This document shows, one piece after another, positions 2,305-45,810 of a stretch of DNA of 46,125 bases. The stretch lies in NCBI RefSeq assembly GCF_965641715.1, contig NZ_OZ282456.1; one strand, written 5' to 3'. The notes under the pieces are model-generated. The model saw nothing but the letters and a program-made list of their open reading frames with translations, did no database searches and was not told the origin of the DNA. Position numbers and translations under genes: made by a program. Source of the stretch: Escherichia coli (lineage in GTDB: Bacteria > Pseudomonadota > Gammaproteobacteria > Enterobacterales > Enterobacteriaceae). How positions within the stretch are numbered: the stretch's first letter is position 1; every line of letters begins with the position of its first letter.

Positions 2305-2311
2305 ATTGAGC

Positions 2312-2659
2312 ATGTGGACGGTACTTTTTAGCCAGCGATTTGACGACTGGCTAAATGAGCAAGAAGACGCTCTTCAGGAAAAGGTTTTGGCTGATTTGAA
2401 AAAGCTACAGGTTTACGGACCTGAGTTACCCAGGCCATATGCCGATACCGTAAAAGGTTCTCGGTACAAAAATATGAAAGAGCTTCGCGTTCAGTTTTCT
2501 GGCCGTCCGATAAGAGCCTTTTATGCGTTCGATCCGATTCGCCGGGCCATCGTTCTTTGTGCAGGAGACAAAAGTAACGATAAGCGGTTTTATGAAAAAC
2601 TGGTGCGTATAGCTGAGGATGAGTTTGCAGCACATCTGAACACACTGGAGAGCAAGTAA
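2312..2659 (+). CDS. Type II toxin, Gp49/HigB-like (RelE/ParE superfamily)
   Basis: Motifs FDDWL...GP.L.RPYADTVKGS...NMKELR...RAFYAFDP.RRAIVL.AGDKS...RFY match the Gp49-like toxin family pattern as recalled; ATG at 2312 with AGGA upstream (track uses TTG at 2306). Confidence 0.65.
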   Translation: MWTVLFSQRFDDWLNEQEDALQEKVLADLKKLQVYGPELPRPYADTVKGSRYKNMKELRVQFSGRPIRAFYAFDPIRRAIVLCAGDKSNDKRFYEKLVRIAEDEFAAHLNTLESK

Positions 2660-2958
2660 TGAGAACATTAGATGAGGCGATTGCCAGCCGTTCACCGGAA
2701 AGCCAGGCGCGAATTAAAGAAATGGCAGATGAGATGATTCTTGAGGTCGGCTTGCAGATGATGCGTGAAGAACTCCAGTTATCACAAAAACAGGTTGCTG
2801 AGGCGATGGGTATAAGCCAGCCAGCAGTAACAAAGCTGGAGCAGCGCGGAAATGATTTAAAGCTGGCGACATTAAAGCGTTACGTTGAAGCTATGGGAGG
2901 CAAATTAAGCCTGGATGTTGAGCTTCCCACAGGAAAACGAATAGCGTTTAACATCTGA
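2659..2958 (+). CDS. HTH (XRE-type) antitoxin / transcriptional regulator (HigA-like)
   Basis: Start overlaps the toxin stop (TAATG); HTH segment LSQKQVAEAMGISQPAVTKLE; toxin-upstream HigBA-like order. Confidence 0.6.
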   Translation: MRTLDEAIASRSPESQARIKEMADEMILEVGLQMMREELQLSQKQVAEAMGISQPAVTKLEQRGNDLKLATLKRYVEAMGGKLSLDVELPTGKRIAFNI

Positions 2959-4639: not shown

Positions 4640-5782
4640 TTATGGTCTGCTTTTCTGTGCCAGCTTATCAGCACATGTTTTTATCAGATCCTGTAGTGTC
4701 CTGGCTGGCAGGTTTGCATCCAGTACGCTGAGTATGCTGTTGTGATCTGCTTGGTCTACTACTTTGCCTGTCGGTGGTAGTAGCTTGAGCTGAGGATTCA
4801 GGTTTTCGTCAAAGCTGATAAGTGCTCTGGCGTTTCTGAGCAGATCAAGAAGTAAGGCTGATATCACATTTTCCTGAGTCATTGCTGGCAGATTTAGCGC
4901 CGCTTTGGTTTTCCCTGTTGCCTTGTCAAACTCCTTGATTAGTTCCTTCCTATAGTTCGGTTCCGTTAATAGCCGATTATGCTCTGTTGCCGCGCGGATA
5001 ATCGTTTTTTCCTGGTACAGTCGTTTAGCCAGATCGCGCTCGTACTGTGTTTTTAACACGCTGCTGATAGCGTTAAAGGCTTCAATGTAGGCTAGCTTGA
5101 TATCCTTCACGCCTGGACCGTCGATACTTTCCATGAGCAAGGTAAATCCGTCTTTTGTCATGCGATAGATTGTTATTTCGCGGTCGCTTCCTTCCAACGG
5201 TCGTTGCTCTTTAAAGAAATGACGCGCCGCAGCTGTGCGAGGAATGCGTAACGCATCGATGGCCATAACGATGGAATTGTTTGTGGTGCTGAATGCCTGG
5301 GCTACATCGGCTGAGGTTGTGAGTGGCTCGTTGTTGCACACCTTAACGTAATACATTGGTTTGGCGTTGAGCGTATCGACAACCTCACGAGCATTGTTTG
5401 GCGAGACGGTAACGGTCGCGGCCGTTTGCGCGTTCTGGTTGAAATAGCAGTCTTCCAGTTTTTCGAACACATCCCAAGCCTGATCGGTTTCGAGCATTTT
5501 GGCGTGACGGGCTGCTCCGTGTTCGGTCCAGAGAATTAGGGAGCGGGCATTTTTACCAACTAACCCGATTGTTTCAGGTCTGTTCTTGAACTCGCGTAAT
5601 TCGTTTTTTTCAATTTTAAAGTAATGCTTTCCGGCTATGAATCGCGTCGTGTTGTTCAGAAAGTTATCAGAAATGTTTTTGATTTTTGTTCCGTATAACT
5701 GCGCCAGAAGTTCAGTTGTAATAACGGGGATCTGGTTATGCAAGATAGGCTGTAGGGTGTTAACGGTCGGAAGCGTTTTCAT
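4640..5782 (-). CDS. Phage antirepressor (Ant-like)
   Basis: 380-aa ORF; N-terminal region with ILWTEHGAARHAKMLETDQAWDVFEKLEDCYF resembles antirepressor N-terminal domains and the C-terminal part resembles KilA-C-type domains, by recall. Confidence 0.55.
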   Translation of the reverse strand: MKTLPTVNTLQPILHNQIPVITTELLAQLYGTKIKNISDNFLNNTTRFIAGKHYFKIEKNELREFKNRPETIGLVGKNARSLILWTEHGAARHAKMLETDQAWDVFEKLEDCYFNQNAQTAATVTVSPNNAREVVDTLNAKPMYYVKVCNNEPLTTSADVAQAFSTTNNSIVMAIDALRIPRTAAARHFFKEQRPLEGSDREITIYRMTKDGFTLLMESIDGPGVKDIKLAYIEAFNAISSVLKTQYERDLAKRLYQEKTIIRAATEHNRLLTEPNYRKELIKEFDKATGKTKAALNLPAMTQENVISALLLDLLRNARALISFDENLNPQLKLLPPTGKVVDQADHNSILSVLDANLPARTLQDLIKTCADKLAQKSRP

Positions 5783-5970: not shown

Positions 5971-6130
5971 TGTGATATCTCCAATATATGGAACTATCAC
6001 CGCCATTCGAGGCTAATCAAATGGTGGTGAGCCGTACAGGGTTAGCCTTACCGGACACAATGACGAACCGGCGCGGATTTCTCCGCCCCTGTACGACCCA
6101 CCATAATTTGGGCGTAACAGTGCTCTACGC

Positions 6131-6157
6131 ATAAAAAAACCGCTAACGCGGTATGCG
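6131..6157 (-). terminator. Candidate intrinsic terminator (minus strand) in the antirepressor leader
   Basis: ACCGC-TAAC-GCGGT hairpin with a 7-A run on the plus strand (T7 on the minus strand). Confidence 0.35.
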
Positions 6158-6298
6158 CCATCGTGTTATTCAGGAGGCTAATCCCGACCGTAGATTTTGC
6201 TACGGCTCGGAAAGTGTCCACCAATGGCGCATTCATGTCAATACGGCGGGATTTTAACAGAGACAACCACATAGCGTGGGTTTATTGGTAGGCAGAAA

Positions 6299-6333: not shown

Positions 6334-6715
6334 GCTGATCGGATTCGCGGTCCTTTCAGCATAACGTCGTTGTGTAAACAACCACGCAAGCACAAGCGGC
6401 GTATCTATTCTTACTCAACTGAGGTGAATAGTCCACTATTCATATAAAGAAATTTAGTTCCTTAGTTCATGCAGAATGAAGTTTTTTAACTTCTTCGGAT
6501 GTAATTACATGTAATAAAAGCAATTGTTATTCCTTCATTATGAAGGCGAGGACGTGTAATATGGCTTGGGGCCTTTTCGCCGATTCGCACCCGGGCACCG
6601 ACTTTAAGGAAAGGATCATCCACTTGCCGTACACGCAAGCACAAGCGGAGTGCTTGCTCTCGCGTCATTTTCGTCGGTGGAGATGCCGTGAAACGGCCTG
6701 TAAGGGCCACACAAT

Positions 6716-6836
6716 GAAAAAATACTGTATGTGTATTTTTATCGTTGTTACTGGAGCTTTGTTTACGCCACATGGGGAGGGTTGGAAGATTACTGATAAC
6801 GCTCTGAATGTGACGATAAACATTAGCAGCAAGTAG
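6716..6836 (+). CDS. Candidate small hydrophobic peptide (40 aa)
   Basis: MKKYCMCIFIVVTGALFTPHGEGWKITDNALNVTINISSK; AAGGG upstream of the ATG; terminator immediately downstream. Confidence 0.2.
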
Positions 6837-6841
6837 CGATT

Positions 6842-6864
6842 AGGCCCCTTCGGGGGCCTTTTTT
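6842..6864 (+). terminator. Rho-independent terminator
   Basis: AGGCCCC-TTCG-GGGGCCT hairpin followed by TTTTTT. Confidence 0.55.
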
Positions 6865-15812: not shown

Positions 15813-15888
15813 GGCCCCTTAGCTCAGTGGTTAGAGCAGGCGACTCATAATCGCACGGTCATCGGTTCAAATCCGGTAGGGGCCACCA
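15813..15888 (+). tRNA. tRNA with CAT anticodon (Met by anticodon; sequence resembles the lysidine-type tRNA-Ile2)
   Basis: Manual cloverleaf: 7-bp acceptor stem GGCCCCT/AGGGGCC, D-arm GCTC-AGTGGTTA-GAGC, anticodon loop CTCATAA, T-loop GGTTCAAATCC, 3' CCA encoded. Confidence 0.8.
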
Positions 15889-40746: not shown

Positions 40747-43065
40747 GTGAGTAAATTATTCTTTACGATGACTGACGCCGGGCGTCAGGAGCTGGTTAAT
40801 GCCAACAAAACAGGAACAAATAAAGTTGAGATTGTTTCTGTTGGTTTAGGTAGTAGATATTATGTCACGTCAACTTCACAAACAAATATAACAAACGAAA
40901 TAAAACGACTTACCACAATAGGTGGCAAAGTTGTTTCCCCTGATACAATTCATGTAACAGCGAAGGATGATAGTAAAGATGAGTATGTTGTCCATACAAT
41001 AGGATTGTATACGAATAAGGGTACGTTGTTTGCTGTATACTCACAAGAACAAGCAATAATAAATAAAGCATCATCTACTATCGCTTTAATATCAAGTGAT
41101 ATAGCAATTAAAACTCTTGATACTAAAAATATTACATTTGGTGATATTGAGTTTATTAATCCTCCCGCGACCGAAACTGTTGTTGGGGTGGCAAGGTTTG
41201 CTAATGAACAAGAAATTGATGCAGGTACAGATGATTCCCTTGCTGTTTCAGCAAAGCGGCTTAAGCAAGCCATTGTGAAACATGAGCAATCACGTAATCA
41301 TCCCGATGCAACTTTAACCTCAAAAGGCTTTGTTCAACTTAGCAGCGCCACCAATAGCTCGTCTGAAACGCTTGCTGCGACGCCTAAGGCTGTTAAGGCA
41401 GCATATGACCTGGCTAATGGCAAATACACCGCACAGGACGCTACCACGGCGCGAAAAGGGATTGTTCAGCTCAGTAGCGCCACTAACAGTGATTCGGAAA
41501 CGCTGGCCGCAACACCAAAGGCTGTTAAGGCAGCGTATGATCTTGCGGCCGGAAAGGCTCCGTCCAATCACACGCATTCGTGGGAGCAGATAACAAATGT
41601 GCCTGTAGCTTCACTGACAGTAAGGGGAATCACTCAGCTCAGTAGTGCAACCAACAGCACGTCTGAAACACTGGCCGCGACATCGAAAGCGGTAAAGGTG
41701 GTAATGGATGAAACGAACAAGAAAGCGCCCTTAAACAGTCCTGCGCTGACCGGAACGCCAACAACACCAACTGCGCCAAAAGGTACTAACAATACTCAGA
41801 TCGCAAGCACGGCTTATGTTATGGCTGCGATCGCTGCCCTCGTGGACTCGTCGCCTGACGCACTGAATACGCTGAACGAGCTGGCTGCGGCGTTGGGCAA
41901 CGACCCGAATTTTGCGACCACCATGACTAACGCGCTTGCGGGTAAGCAACCGAAAGATGCCACCCTGACGGCGCTGGCCGGGCTTGCTACTGCGGCAGAC
42001 AAGTTTCCGTATTTTACGGGGAATGATGTCGCCAGCCTGGCAACCCTGACAAAAGTCGGGCGGGATATTCTTGCGAAATCGACCGTTGCTGCCGTTATCG
42101 AATACCTCGGTTTGCAGGAAACGGTAAATCAGGCTTCTGGCGCATTACAGAAAAACCAGAACGGTGCAGATATTCCGAATAAAGATAAATTCATACAAAA
42201 CACAGGGGCCTGTCGTGCATTTAGCGGTCAGACTGATATCGATGGTTCACAAGGTGCATGGTCGACAGTTGCATTTATCTCGTGGCTGGAGAATAACGGA
42301 GCTTTCCGACATCCATACTGGATGTGTAAAGGGTCATGGTCCTATGCCAGAAACAGGGTTATTACGGATACCGGTTGTGGAAATATCTGCCTTGCCGGAG
42401 CCGTGATTGAGGTTATGGGAACCCGCGGCGCAATGACCATACGCGTTACCACGCCGAGCACGTCCAGCGGTGGCGGAATTACTAACGCTCAATTCACTTA
42501 TATTGATCATGGTGATGCTTATGCCCCCGGCTGGCGACGAGACTACAACACGAAAAACCAGCAGCCTGCATTTGCTTTAGGGCAAACAGGAAGCAGGGTT
42601 GCAAATGATAAAGCTGTTGGCTGGAACTGGAATAGCGGTGTTTATGATGCAGATATCAGCGGTGCATCGACATTAATCCTCCACTTCAATATGAATACGG
42701 GGAGCTGCCCTGCTGTACAGTTCCGCGTGAATTACAGGAACGGCGGTATTTTTTATCGTTCAGCGCGTGATGGTTATGGATTTGAGGCTAACTGGTCAGA
42801 GTTTTACACCACGACCCGCAAACCCTCTGCGGGAGATGTTGGTGCATACACGCAGGCAGAATGTAACTCAAGGTTTATTACAGGTATTCGCCTTGGCGGT
42901 CTGTCATCTGTTCAGACATGGAATGGTCCCGGCTGGTCTGACAGGTCAGGTTATGTCGTTACGGGTTCAGTTAACGGAAACCGTGATGAATTAATTGATA
43001 CAACTCAGGCAAGGCCAATTCAGTATTGCATTAATGGGACGTGGTATAACGCGGGGAGTATTTAA
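40747..43065 (+). CDS. Tail fibre protein (constant N-terminal part plus currently expressed variable C-terminal part)
   Basis: 772 aa; three copies of the fibre repeat [19 protein letters not shown]; crossover site inside the coding sequence at 42104-42128. Confidence 0.8.
42104..42128. other. Left inversion crossover site (gix/cix-like) inside the tail-fibre gene
   Basis: ACCTCGGTTTGCAGGAAACGGTAAA; matches the reverse complement of 45158-45182 at 24 of 25 positions. Confidence 0.7.
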
Positions 43066-43067
43066 TT

Positions 43068-43601
43068 ATGATGCACTTAAAAAATATTACTGCTGGCAAC
43101 CCTAAAACAAAAGAGCAATACCAGCTAACGAAACAATTTAACATCAAATGGCTTTATACAGAGGATGGGAAAAACTGGTATGAGGAACAAAAGAACTTTC
43201 AGCCTGATACGTTGAAAATGGTCTATGACCACAACAACGTTATTATTTGTATTGAAAAGGATGTTTCAGCAATTAATCCAGAAGGCGCAAGCGTCGTTGA
43301 GGTTCCTGATATTACAGCAAATCGCCGGGCTGATATTTCTGGTAAATGGATGTTCAAAGATGGCGTAGTGGTAAAGCGAACTTATACCGAGGAAGAGCAG
43401 AGGCAGCAGGCGGAAAATGAAAAGCAAAGCCTGCTACAGCTCGTTAGGGATAAAACCCAGCTATGGGACTCACAGCTACGGCTGGGCATCATTTCCGACG
43501 AGAATAAACAAAAATTAACCGAGTGGATGCTCTATGCGCAGAAAGTCGAATCTACAGACACCTCCAGCCTGCCAGTAACATTTCCCGAACAACCTGAATG
43601 A
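43068..43601 (+). CDS. Tail fibre assembly protein (current orientation)
   Basis: 177 aa; paralogous to the minus-strand 43630-44160 product (shared [13 protein letters not shown] and [12 protein letters not shown] segments). Confidence 0.7.
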
Positions 43602-43629
43602 GACAAGGCCCGATCGCGGGCCTTAATTT

Positions 43630-44160
43630 TTATTCAGGCTTTTGTGGCCATTCAGGATTTGCCGTATCCACACGGCTGACCAGAACACTGTAGCGTTCCC
43701 ATGCTTCCAGTCGTGTGCGTTCCTCGTCTGTTGCCATATTCAGCCTGACAGCGCGTTCCAGCGGCTGGATGACTGATTCAGCTTCGGAAAGCAATGCGGC
43801 CTTTTGTGATTCGCCTTGTTGTTGCTGTTCGTCTGCCGTATAAATCCGTTTAACTACAGCTCCATCCTTAAACATCCACTTTCCTGAATCATCAGCGCGG
43901 CGGTTGGCTGTAATATCAGGAACCTCAACGACGCTAAAACCTTCAGGGTTAAGCGTGGAGGCATCTTTAGTGATGGCGACAATAATATTATTTGCATCGT
44001 AAACAATCTTTATTGTGTCTGGCTGAAAGTTTTTCACTTCCTCATACCAGTTTTTATCGTCTTCGGACCATAACCAGATAACATCAAAATTCTTTGTTAG
44101 CTGATATTGTTCTTTCGTTTTAGGATTTCCAGACTTAATATTTTTTAAATGCTGCATCAT
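43630..44160 (-). CDS. Tail fibre assembly protein (alternative orientation)
   Basis: 176 aa; paralogue of 43068-43601 on the opposite strand. Confidence 0.7.
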
Positions 44161-45156
44161 TTACACCTGTGCGACGTTATACCATGTGCCATTGATGTAT
44201 TTTTGTATTGGCCTGAAGATGGCTTCATCATCGCCATCTACTTCACCAATGATTCTTAATCCGGTAATTGCGTGTCCGGCTTTTTCATAACGACCACCAC
44301 GCGCCATCAATTGAACAACTCGCGTACCCAGGCGAACATCTCTCACATATCTGGAATCAAAATTGCCATAGTTGCCAGGAATAACTTGCGAGCCACAAAG
44401 CCAGTTACCGTTATTGTCCATGTACGCCTGACCATCGGTGCCATTGGCTGTCCTTGAGTTATTAATCATGTAAAAACCAAACTGGTAGTTACCAAGTCCA
44501 CCGACAAAAAATTTGCGTTCTGCATGGTCTTGTCTTAACAAAGCCTGCGCAGAACTTGTTGATACTGCGTTTCTACCAAAAATGACATTCTGGTTTCGCA
44601 TATCAATCCATGAGGTTGAGCCACTATTAATAGCAAACCTGTTTGCATACACCCAGGCGTTAGTTGTTATATCTCCTGTAACATCCAGACCATGCCCCAT
44701 AGTTATGCGGCCAGTTCTGAGATTAAGCGTAAAGGGACGTAGTGGCCCTATATTACCATTTTCCCCCTCATTCTCTCGTGTAGGGATGATATGCAGGCAT
44801 TCTTCAGAACGGCGAAAAATGGCACCAAAAGATGAATTAAATATCCTCAGTGCATTGACTGTCGATATTTTTACTTCACTGCTGAAAAGAGCTTTAACAA
44901 GAACATACAAAGCATCCCATTTAAGATTCATCAGGTCTTTTGTTGTGGTGCTTTGTTTGCTTCTCCATTTGAAATATTCATTGCCGTTGTCGCCTGTCTC
45001 AAACCACATGTATGAATCAGTGTCACCATCGGCATCATTTTTAAATCCAATCTTCGCCCAGTCAGTATTTCGAATCCAGGCAAGGATTGAGTCATTTTCA
45101 AAAGTAAGCCCACCGGACAAAGTATCGCCATTTTTTTGCACGGCGTTACCAGCCCT
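44161..45156 (-). CDS. Alternative tail-fibre C-terminal segment (silent; no own start, would fuse to the constant part after inversion)
   Basis: Open minus-strand frame continues to the crossover site and encodes LGLQETVN there, identical to the plus-strand fibre at the left site. Confidence 0.65.
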   Translation of the reverse strand, partial: RAGNAVQKNGDTLSGGLTFENDSILAWIRNTDWAKIGFKNDADGDTDSYMWFETGDNGNEYFKWRSKQSTTTKDLMNLKWDALYVLVKALFSSEVKISTVNALRIFNSSFGAIFRRSEECLHIIPTRENEGENGNIGPLRPFTLNLRTGRITMGHGLDVTGDITTNAWVYANRFAINSGSTSWIDMRNQNVIFGRNAVSTSSAQALLRQDHAERKFFVGGLGNYQFGFYMINNSRTANGTDGQAYMDNNGNWLCGSQVIPGNYGNFDSRYVRDVRLGTRVVQLMARGGRYEKAGHAITGLRIIGEVDGDDEAIFRPIQKYINGTWYNVAQV

Positions 45157-45157
45157 G

Positions 45158-45182
45158 TTTACCGTTTCCTGTAAACCGAGGT
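45158..45182. other. Right inversion crossover site (gix/cix-like)
   Basis: TTTACCGTTTCCTGTAAACCGAGGT; contains TTCCTGTAAACCGAGGTTTT, resembling the Gin/Cin crossover sequence as recalled. Confidence 0.7.
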
Positions 45183-45255
45183 TTTTGCGAATTGCCTCTG
45201 TGTCGTCTGAACGATATTTTTTCCCGCTTTTAGCAACAATCGCGGTTTAGAAAGT

Positions 45256-45810
45256 ATGCAATATGGTTATGCGAGGGTGTCAACTTTTGACCAGAATTTG
45301 GAATTACAACTGGAGGCGCTCAGGAGTTTAGGATGTGACCGGATTTTTGAAGATAAAATATCCGGTGCTAAATCAAAACGACCAGGACTTGATAAGCTAC
45401 TTAAGGTGTTACAGCCGGGCGATACGGTTATTGTCTGGAAGCTGGACCGAATGGGGCGTTCTCTGATTCATCTTGTTGATTTACTTAACCATTTTTTATC
45501 AAACAACATTGAGTTTATTTCGATTACGGAAGGGATAAAAATTAGCACTTCAATTGGCCGCTTTGCCTACACGATGCTGAGTGCAGTCGCAGAGATGGAG
45601 CGGGAAAATATGATTGAAAGAACGCGTGCAGGATTGGCGGTGGCAAGGGCTAACGGCAGGATAGGAGGACGCCGCTCAAAATTGGCACCAGAGCAATGGG
45701 AACAGATCGGAAGGCTTATTGCGAATGGTGTTTCACGTAAGCGGATAGCGATTATCTTCGATGTTACCTTATCCACGCTTTACCGCAGGTTTCCGGCTGG
45801 GAATCATTGA
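45256..45810 (+). CDS. Serine recombinase, DNA invertase (Gin/Cin/Hin family)
   Basis: 184 aa; N-terminal YARVSTFDQNLELQ with catalytic Ser context, C-terminal HTH; adjacent to the invertible segment. Confidence 0.85.
   Translation: MQYGYARVSTFDQNLELQLEALRSLGCDRIFEDKISGAKSKRPGLDKLLKVLQPGDTVIVWKLDRMGRSLIHLVDLLNHFLSNNIEFISITEGIKISTSIGRFAYTMLSAVAEMERENMIERTRAGLAVARANGRIGGRRSKLAPEQWEQIGRLIANGVSRKRIAIIFDVTLSTLYRRFPAGNH

Follow-up and report, generated by a model that had tools for sequence, protein, structure and literature searches.

Does the tail-fibre locus of this Escherichia coli phage-plasmid specify a single fibre tip, or two tips that the element is able to exchange? The locus spans positions 40747 to 45810 of a 46,125-nucleotide (nt) stretch of DNA (RefSeq assembly GCF_965641715.1, contig NZ_OZ282456.1), which was analysed at its full length and is referred to here as the window. 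It contains a tail-fibre gene, a segment flanked by inverted repeats that carries two fibre tips and two fibre-assembly chaperones, and a gene for a serine DNA invertase. An initial annotation, made from the letters of the sequence, had described the locus as a Mu/P1-type host-range switch. Our analysis leads us to conclude that it is very probably an active, invertible host-range switch of the Gin/Cin type, borne by a 46-kb phage-plasmid of the myovirus type. A constant fibre part, two convergent tip-and-chaperone cassettes, gix-type sites and an adjacent invertase are all present, as a switch of the Mu/P1 type comprises them.

The inverted repeat was found exactly where the initial annotation had placed it, with the 25-nt arm at 42104-42128 (ACCTCGGTTTGCAGGAAACGGTAAA) matching the reverse complement of 45158-45182 at 24 of 25 nt and a single base setting the two apart. 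Both arms are coding and each specifies the peptide LGLQETVN in its own frame, again as reported; the plus-strand arm lies within the 772-amino-acid (aa) fibre open reading frame (ORF) at 40747-43065. A search of the window for the 25-mer at up to three mismatches recovered the two arms only, and no match appeared in 100 dinucleotide-preserving shuffles. A repeat finder recovered a longer inverted pair around the 25-mer, extending over 55 nt at 76% complementarity. Two more inverted pairs were detected inside the segment, one of 361 nt at 70% that spans both chaperone genes and one of 40 nt at 80% that spans the 3′ ends of both tip cassettes.

Although this repeat is real, it is not itself the pair of crossover sites that the initial annotation took it to be. 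Alignment of the annotated Mu and P7 records with the window placed the recombination sites in two offset 26-bp sequences. The left site, recognized by comparison with Mu gix and P7 cix, occupies 42095-42120 (TTATCGAATACC TC GGTTTGCAGGAA), and the right site, aligned with Mu gixR, occupies 45166-45191 (TTCCTGTAAACC GA GGTTTTTGCGAA). Read as its reverse complement, the right site is TTCGCAAAAACC TC GGTTTACAGGAA, for comparison with TTATCCAAAACC TC GGTTTACAGGAA in Mu gix; P7 cix has a TT core and different half-sites. Judged by these alignments, both sites in the window are of the gix type, and both display the 12 + 2 + 12 architecture of canonical invertase sites. The 25-mer is composed of the inner half-site, the core and 3 bp of the outer half-site, together with 8 bp of conserved coding sequence. 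The crossover dinucleotides lie at 42107-42108 (TC, left, inside the fibre codon for Leu454) and 45178-45179 (GA, right), and the invertible DNA between them is 42109-45177, or 3,069 bp. A degenerate consensus pattern matched the two sites with one and zero mismatches, and its application across the window at up to two mismatches revealed no third site. With only two sites in the window, the arrangement is that of a simple two-state switch. A Min-like multi-site shufflon was also considered and rejected, the extra hit having three mismatches, which is at chance level.

The fibre gene is divided by the left site into a constant and an exchangeable part. The constant part, Sc (residues 1-453; 40747-42106, plus strand), lies outside the invertible segment, contains three matches to Pfam PF03406 (Phage_fiber_2), and is 99.6% identical to its counterpart in Yersinia phage vB_YpM_44 and 87% identical to that of a plasmid of E. 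coli ATCC 25922. Within Sc, three direct 93-nt repeats at 41322-41714, 63-78% identical to one another, encode the three Phage_fiber_2 repeats (residues 189-329); such repeats are ordinary for fibres of this kind and are a possible substrate for length variation.

Inside the segment, the expressed tip cassette Sv (42109-43065, plus strand) completes the 772-aa fibre and is 89% identical at the aa level to both Mu S′, the G(-) form, and P7 Sv. It is followed by its paired chaperone of 177 aa (43068-43601, plus strand), a match to the PHROG 136 tail fiber assembly protein (E 3e-75) that is 98% identical to Mu U′. Facing this pair on the minus strand are a second chaperone of 176 aa (43630-44160; PHROG 136, E 6e-81), which is silent in the window orientation and shows identities of 99.4% with P7 U′ and 94% with Mu U, and an alternative tip, Sv′ (44161-45177), whose frame runs to a stop at 44161 and whose identity is 96.8% with P7 Sv′ and 66% with Mu S. 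Upstream, the Sv′ frame meets a stop at a distance of 26 codons from LGLQETVN (30 codons from the repeat), and it offers no plausible start. Sv′ is therefore a promoterless and startless 3′ cassette, silent as it stands. PHROG profiles placed both tips in tail-fibre families, and a search of the fibre and chaperones against NCBIfam returned no matches. Between the convergent chaperone genes, a scan for terminator-like sites identified a G+C-rich hairpin at 43605-43624 followed by a T-run on the plus strand, with RNA folds of -27.9 kcal/mol (plus) and -25.7 kcal/mol (minus) and z of about -6.6 to -6.9; this hairpin is likely to terminate the fibre operon.

Inversion of the segment in silico produced an uninterrupted 792-aa fibre ORF. 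The locus hence has its constant 5′ part outside the segment and two convergent tip-and-chaperone cassettes inside it, both of which are in frame after inversion. The exchanged tails measure 318 aa and 338 aa, of which 311 aa and 331 aa truly differ; the swap of about 310 C-terminal residues together with the chaperone, as first proposed, was a fair description.

Both orientations of the segment exist in nature. Base-by-base comparison revealed that the window is GenBank CP055628.1 (plasmid pRHB38-C13_5 of E. coli RHB38-C13, pig faeces, UK; 46,125 bp) reverse-complemented and rotated to the repA ATG, with the segment inverted and four substitutions. Positions 1-25000 of the window matched CP055628.1 at 100% on the minus strand, and the segment showed zero differences after flipping. 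In CP055628.1, the 792-aa fibre is annotated and the other tip is left as an orphan 'phage tail protein'. The substitutions private to the window lie at 1454, 9602, 37026 and 40761, the last of which gives the fibre Phe5 instead of Leu5; they may be genuine variation in a sibling isolate or may have been introduced. The exact 772-aa fibre protein with Phe5 was absent from the public collection; the exact 772-aa fusion with Leu5 was found on 22 public contigs and the exact 792-aa fusion on nine.

Closely related elements gave the same picture. Over 8.3 kb, a single nt separates the window from contig L014 (GCA_018546785.1) in the same orientation, and from contigs L019 and L020 only once these are flipped. 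In the sister element of ATCC 25922, the 26-bp sites are the same and the invertase is one residue apart (Q53R), and an assembly of this strain, NZ_CP032086.1, holds two tandem copies of the element with oppositely oriented segments; flipping one copy left 0 mismatches over 8.5 kb. The record itself is linear and 94,204 bp long, its two tandem copies (L011 and L012) are of a 48.5-kb phage-plasmid, and it may be a concatemer or dimer, or else have arisen as an artefact of assembly. Among PLSDB records surveyed for the junctions, six carry the window-type right junction and eight the flipped type. The initial annotation had named the observation of only one orientation as grounds for abandoning the switch; the flipped CP055628.1, the public occurrence of both fusions and the opposed ATCC 25922 copies all speak to the contrary. 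Two further PLSDB records from Escherichia fergusonii, NZ_CP057563.1 and NZ_CP057567.1, come from the same study, are both 95,926 bp long, a P1-like size, and have an invertase 5′ region about 91-92% identical to the window's at the nt level. The window-type junction query covered them at 54% and 91%, respectively, which suggests that they differ in the orientation of the fibre segment.

These flipped pairs also locate the exchange. The inner half-sites carry a G/A polymorphism that moves with the segment in every flipped pair examined, and the exchange is therefore confined to the 10 bp ACCTCGGTTT (42104-42113), core included. Such confinement is predicted by site-specific cleavage at the core and not by scattered homologous exchange.

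Downstream of the right site lies the gene of a 184-aa serine DNA invertase (45256-45810, plus strand), which proved to be intact and adjacent to the segment, as had been stated. The protein matched the Pfam domains Resolvase (PF00239, 1.5e-44) and HTH_7 (PF02796, 5.6e-13) and the PHROG 125 DNA invertase (1.4e-79); among the NCBIfam equivalog models, none reached its cutoff. The catalytic Ser9 lies within a YARVST motif, a D64-R65/R68 motif is present and the HTH is C-terminal. In an alignment of 14 family members, R7, D64, R65, R68, E113, R116 and the GGR motif were invariant. The enzyme is 56% identical to Gin and 56% to Cin, with about 55-56% at the nucleotide level. Its best solved relative is Gin (3uj3, 4.5e-62), and with 212 bits for the match to Gin and 109 bits for that to gamma-delta resolvase, it stands nearer to the invertases than to the resolvases. 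By these similarities, the protein can be assigned to the Din family (Hin/Gin/Cin/Pin) of serine DNA invertases.

Several observations weigh against an active switch that is operated by this enzyme. Its helix E has A104, Y105, T106 and L108 where Hin has F105, F106, H107 and M109, and the classical Din residues for which we examined these positions were not found. In Hin, F105 and M109 keep the dimer inactive, only Phe or, weakly, Tyr is tolerated at residue 106, and F106Y alone reduces activity to about 10% (PMC4513852). In a promoter scan, the interval from the right site to the start of the invertase gene yielded no sigma-70-like promoter. Gin-family invertases (Gin, Cin, Pin and Hin) substitute for one another, and a chromosomal Pin-type enzyme could act on these sites in trans. 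Furthermore, the four substitutions of the window were missing from the public records examined, and the comparison of the window with CP055628.1 is not, alone, independent evidence; the dependence on this one comparison is removed by the other public contigs, which show both orientations. Finally, five other independent assemblies of ATCC 25922 are all in one orientation. Given their agreement, the switch is not fast enough for every assembly to differ, and either slow switching or the predominance of one state in culture may be the reason.

The alternative that best survives these observations is catalysis in trans, in which a different Din-family invertase of the host, from e14 (Pin) or other prophages, would perform the flips and the unusual helix E would leave the local enzyme weak or inactive. 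In its favour, 1,904 of the 5,426 complete E. coli genomes contain segments homologous to that of the window, and the inner half-sites resemble those of gix; Gin, Cin, Pin and Hin are also known to complement one another, and the helix-E residues are changed where Hin tolerates little. What speaks against this explanation is the state of the local gene. Its ORF is intact and evidently conserved, at 97.8-99.5% identity among the three family elements compared, and a whole subfamily with the same helix-E motif is found beside tail-fibre cassettes in unrelated phage backbones. Moreover, the 78-bp distance from site core to ATG, identical in two P1-like relatives, and the enhancer-like motifs described below are conserved, a pattern unlike that of a dead gene. 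We therefore consider catalysis in trans improbable and take the local invertase as the likely catalyst.

A second alternative, RecA-dependent homologous recombination between the repeats, would also account for differences in orientation, and rare homologous exchange is compatible with arms that share 24 of 25 nt within a 55-nt pair at 76%. Unbroken identity around the polymorphic base, however, measures 10 nt and 14 nt, and such lengths are below the need of efficient RecA exchange. The exchange fell, in all flipped pairs examined, on the outer side of the polymorphism, within the 10 bp that hold the core, and the repeat coincides in position with a 12-2-12 site of canonical form that adjoins an invertase gene. 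We regard this explanation as very improbable. The least credible reading is a frozen relic, in which the database orientations are old rare events or assembly choices: the five concordant ATCC 25922 assemblies and the fact that consensus assemblies give the majority state only would agree with it, but elements identical over 8.3 kb save the flip come from different samples, the two copies in NZ_CP032086.1 differ by the flip only, and a clean 3-kb inversion is not an error that a repeat as short as 25 nt would induce in long-read or large-k assemblers.

A putative recombinational enhancer was located at 45277-45340, in the 5′ end of the invertase gene, by positional homology to the P7 cin enhancer, which the P7 record annotates at nt 19-86 of the gene. 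The region is delimited by two 15-mers of the form G-N13-C, GTGTCAACTTTTGAC at 45277-45291 and GTTTAGGATGTGACC at 45326-45340 (gene nt 22-36 and 71-85). The distance between their centres is 49 bp, and about 105 bp lie between the first 15-mer and the right crossover point. The Hin enhancer is 65 bp long, with a Fis site at each end, and about 100 bp separate it from the nearest hix site (PMC3798978); the candidate in the window, at about 64 bp and about 105 bp, closely resembles it. A G-N13-C motif was also present at both positions in gin and in four genes of the subfamily (68-87% protein identity), with variable intervening bases. Nucleotide identity of the putative enhancer region to gin was 0.65, against 0.55 for the rest of the gene, a slight excess; to cin it was 0.57 against 0.55, with no added conservation. 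Since overall identity is barely raised, the case for the enhancer rests on the conserved positions of the motifs. There is moderate support for a Fis- and enhancer-dependent mechanism of the conventional type, and inversion probably depends on both.

In the mechanism that we propose, dimers of the 184-aa invertase would bind the two inverted 26-bp sites, and an invertasome would assemble, most likely on the Fis-bound enhancer in the first ~85 nt of the invertase gene. Both sites would undergo staggered cleavage at the central TC/GA, one pair of subunits would rotate by 180 degrees and the ends would be religated. The segment 42109-45177 would thereby flip, while the fibre promoter, the start codon and codons 1-453 would stay in place. 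In the window orientation, a 772-aa fibre with a tip resembling Mu S′ and P7 Sv would be produced together with the U′-like chaperone; in the flipped orientation, a 792-aa fibre with a tip resembling P7 Sv′ would be produced together with its own chaperone. In either orientation, the matching chaperone would come to lie directly downstream of the fibre. A lysogen population would release two types of virion with different predicted lipopolysaccharide-receptor specificities. The resemblance of the two tips to Mu S′ (89%) and P7 Sv′ (96.8%), respectively, suggests that inversion changes host range.

In its general layout, the locus is closest to the Mu/Gin system. The constant fibre part, the segment and the downstream invertase on the same strand follow one another as in Mu; the TC core and the LGLQETVN junction are shared, and the inner half-site is nearly identical (GGTTT[A/G]CAGGAA). 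The segment is also of matching size, 3,069 bp against annotated Mu G boundaries about 3.06 kb apart, and the DNA of the segment is about 91% identical to Mu G, sites included. The expressed tip resembles Mu S′ and the chaperones are 94-98% identical to those of Mu. In contrast, the invertase is only 56% identical to Gin, the outer half-sites are TTATCGAATACC and TTCGCAAAAACC in the window against TTATCCAAAACC in Mu, and the identity of the second tip with Mu S reaches only 66%. At 453 aa, the constant fibre part far exceeds the length of about 170 aa in the Mu annotation, and it has no similarity to that of Mu beyond fibre-repeat motifs of about 40 aa. The carrier replicates as a plasmid, whereas Mu transposes.

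With P1 and P7 the element shares the phage-plasmid lifestyle. Identity to P7 C is 95.7% over the inner part of the segment, the silent tip and its chaperone are those closest to P7 Sv′ and U′ (96.8% and 99.4%), and an enhancer is annotated at the equivalent position in cin; identity to P1 C is 92%. Mu G, P7 C and P1 C are all invertible segments that have been characterised by experiment. In P7, unlike in the window, cin is on the opposite strand relative to S, the segment extends over about 4.0 kb, cix has a TT core with different half-sites, and the invertase is only 56% identical to that of the window. The replicon and virion genes of P1 are unrelated to those of the window element, which is 46 kb in size and has a P2/Mu-like baseplate. 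Judged by sequence comparison, gene order and the TC core are Mu-like rather than P1-like. With Hin/hix, the locus has in common the recombinase fold, the catalytic residues and 26-bp sites of 12-2-12 architecture; Hin, however, flips a promoter, while the system in the window flips coding cassettes, and the two enzymes are set apart by the helix-E residues given above. The p15B Min system and multi-site shufflons employ the same class of invertase and likewise target the 3′ cassettes of tail fibres, but the window has two sites and two cassettes only.

Database searches extended these comparisons to the relatives of the invertase. Near-identical copies (97-98%) were found on contigs of 46-49 kb, and relatives at 86-87% on contigs of roughly 90-100 kb and at about 80% in Citrobacter chromosomes; the largest invertase cluster, with 212 member sequences, was seen on a short contig only. 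The 14-sequence alignment revealed that the helix-E motif GRFAYTMLSA is found throughout the subfamily (identity of at least 68%); the corresponding sequence in Gin, Cin and two further relatives is GRFFFHVMGA. The subfamily motif thus has Ala-Tyr-Thr in place of the Phe-Phe-His 'phenylalanine switch' of Hin, Gin and Cin, and the rotation-interface residues of the subfamily (A, L, V/A) resemble those of resolvase. All subfamily members sampled adjoin tail-fibre and chaperone cassettes, in backbones that are unrelated to one another: P1-like phage-plasmids with LydB and DarA, a Mu-like Citrobacter prophage and Salmonella prophages. They are paired with gix-like sites, cix-like sites or multi-cassette arrays. 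The pairing of one subfamily with such varied sites and backbones suggests that invertase and cassettes have been exchanged independently.

Two of these relatives, 74-80% identical to the invertase of the window, stand beside several short tip fragments, in the Mu-like prophage of Citrobacter (L023, 1198-3917) and in a P1-like phage-plasmid (L025, 1055-4436), where the fragments are of the Collar-domain type. Both arrays have multiple cix-like sites and look like multi-cassette, shufflon-like fibre switches. The window invertase belongs to an uncharacterised subfamily with a divergent regulatory helix E. It is conceivable, although we hold it doubtful, that this is a natural subfamily of tail-fibre invertases, marked by GRFAYTMLSA, that could be activated in a manner unlike that of the textbook enzymes. 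Should this be so, a weaker dependence on Fis or a different switching rate, for example, could follow.

The carrier of the switch is a complete circular replicon of 46 kb. The plasmid genes annotated in CP055628.1 encode RepA, ParA, ParB-domain proteins and a RelE/XRE toxin-antitoxin pair, and its phage genes encode portal, protease, capsid, sheath, tube, tape measure, a P2/Mu-type baseplate, holins and an endolysin. The Yersinia phages vB_YpM_39, 41 and 44, deposited as phage genomes of about 49 kb, have a region in common with it; in the virion-derived vB_YpM_44, RepA (99.3%) and the invertase (97.8%) are nearly identical to those of the window, as is the constant fibre part, and the tip cassettes are different. 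This gene content identifies the element as a myovirus-type phage-plasmid and bears out its earlier description as a plasmid-borne prophage. Members of the family occur in E. coli, including the reference strain ATCC 25922, in E. fergusonii, in E. albertii and in Klebsiella, and have been isolated as phages that plaque on Yersinia pestis. Neither a published name for this 46-49 kb phage-plasmid family nor a description of its switch was found in the literature. Two candidate affiliations were rejected: the pSLy3 phage-plasmid group is SSU5-related and about 100 kb in size, and the 'plasmid-like' Yersinia phage vB_YpM_HQ103 is an unrelated, P2-like phage of 32 kb.

Other features of the carrier lie outside the switch. 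Rfam matches to C4 antisense RNA, isrK and ryfA at 6020-6108 (minus strand), 6133-6206 (minus strand) and 6567-6864 (plus strand) adjoin an ORF6N-domain, antirepressor-like ORF at 4640-5782 (minus strand), and together they look like an immunity module of the P1/P7 immI type in a carrier that is otherwise unrelated to P1. A tRNA-Met gene with a CAT anticodon is located at 15813-15888 (plus strand), in the early/regulatory region. Just downstream of repA, at 2306-2958 (plus strand), lie a toxin of the RelE/ParE family, named HigB2 in the Yersinia phage relative, and an XRE antitoxin, which are presumably a plasmid-addiction module.

That phages invert their tail-fibre tips in a programmed manner is knowledge that dates back to Mu and P1. 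The system described here belongs to this textbook type of host-range switch and is not a new kind of system; inversions of phage tail-fibre tips have also been catalogued genome-wide (PMC9881135). What is mildly unusual about it is limited to the divergence of the invertase subfamily and to the mosaic in which this invertase is paired with Mu/P7-like cassettes. Cassettes nearly identical to those of Mu and P7, next to an invertase of 56% identity, offer a clean natural case of a recombinase and its cargo exchanged independently, and the enzyme is a natural variant at the very helix-E positions that have been mutagenised in Hin. Annotation pipelines label the silent cassette as a partial 'phage tail protein' or a pseudogene. 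With a two-state switch carried by this little-studied family of 46-49 kb myovirus phage-plasmids, a single deposited sequence would under-report the host range of the element.

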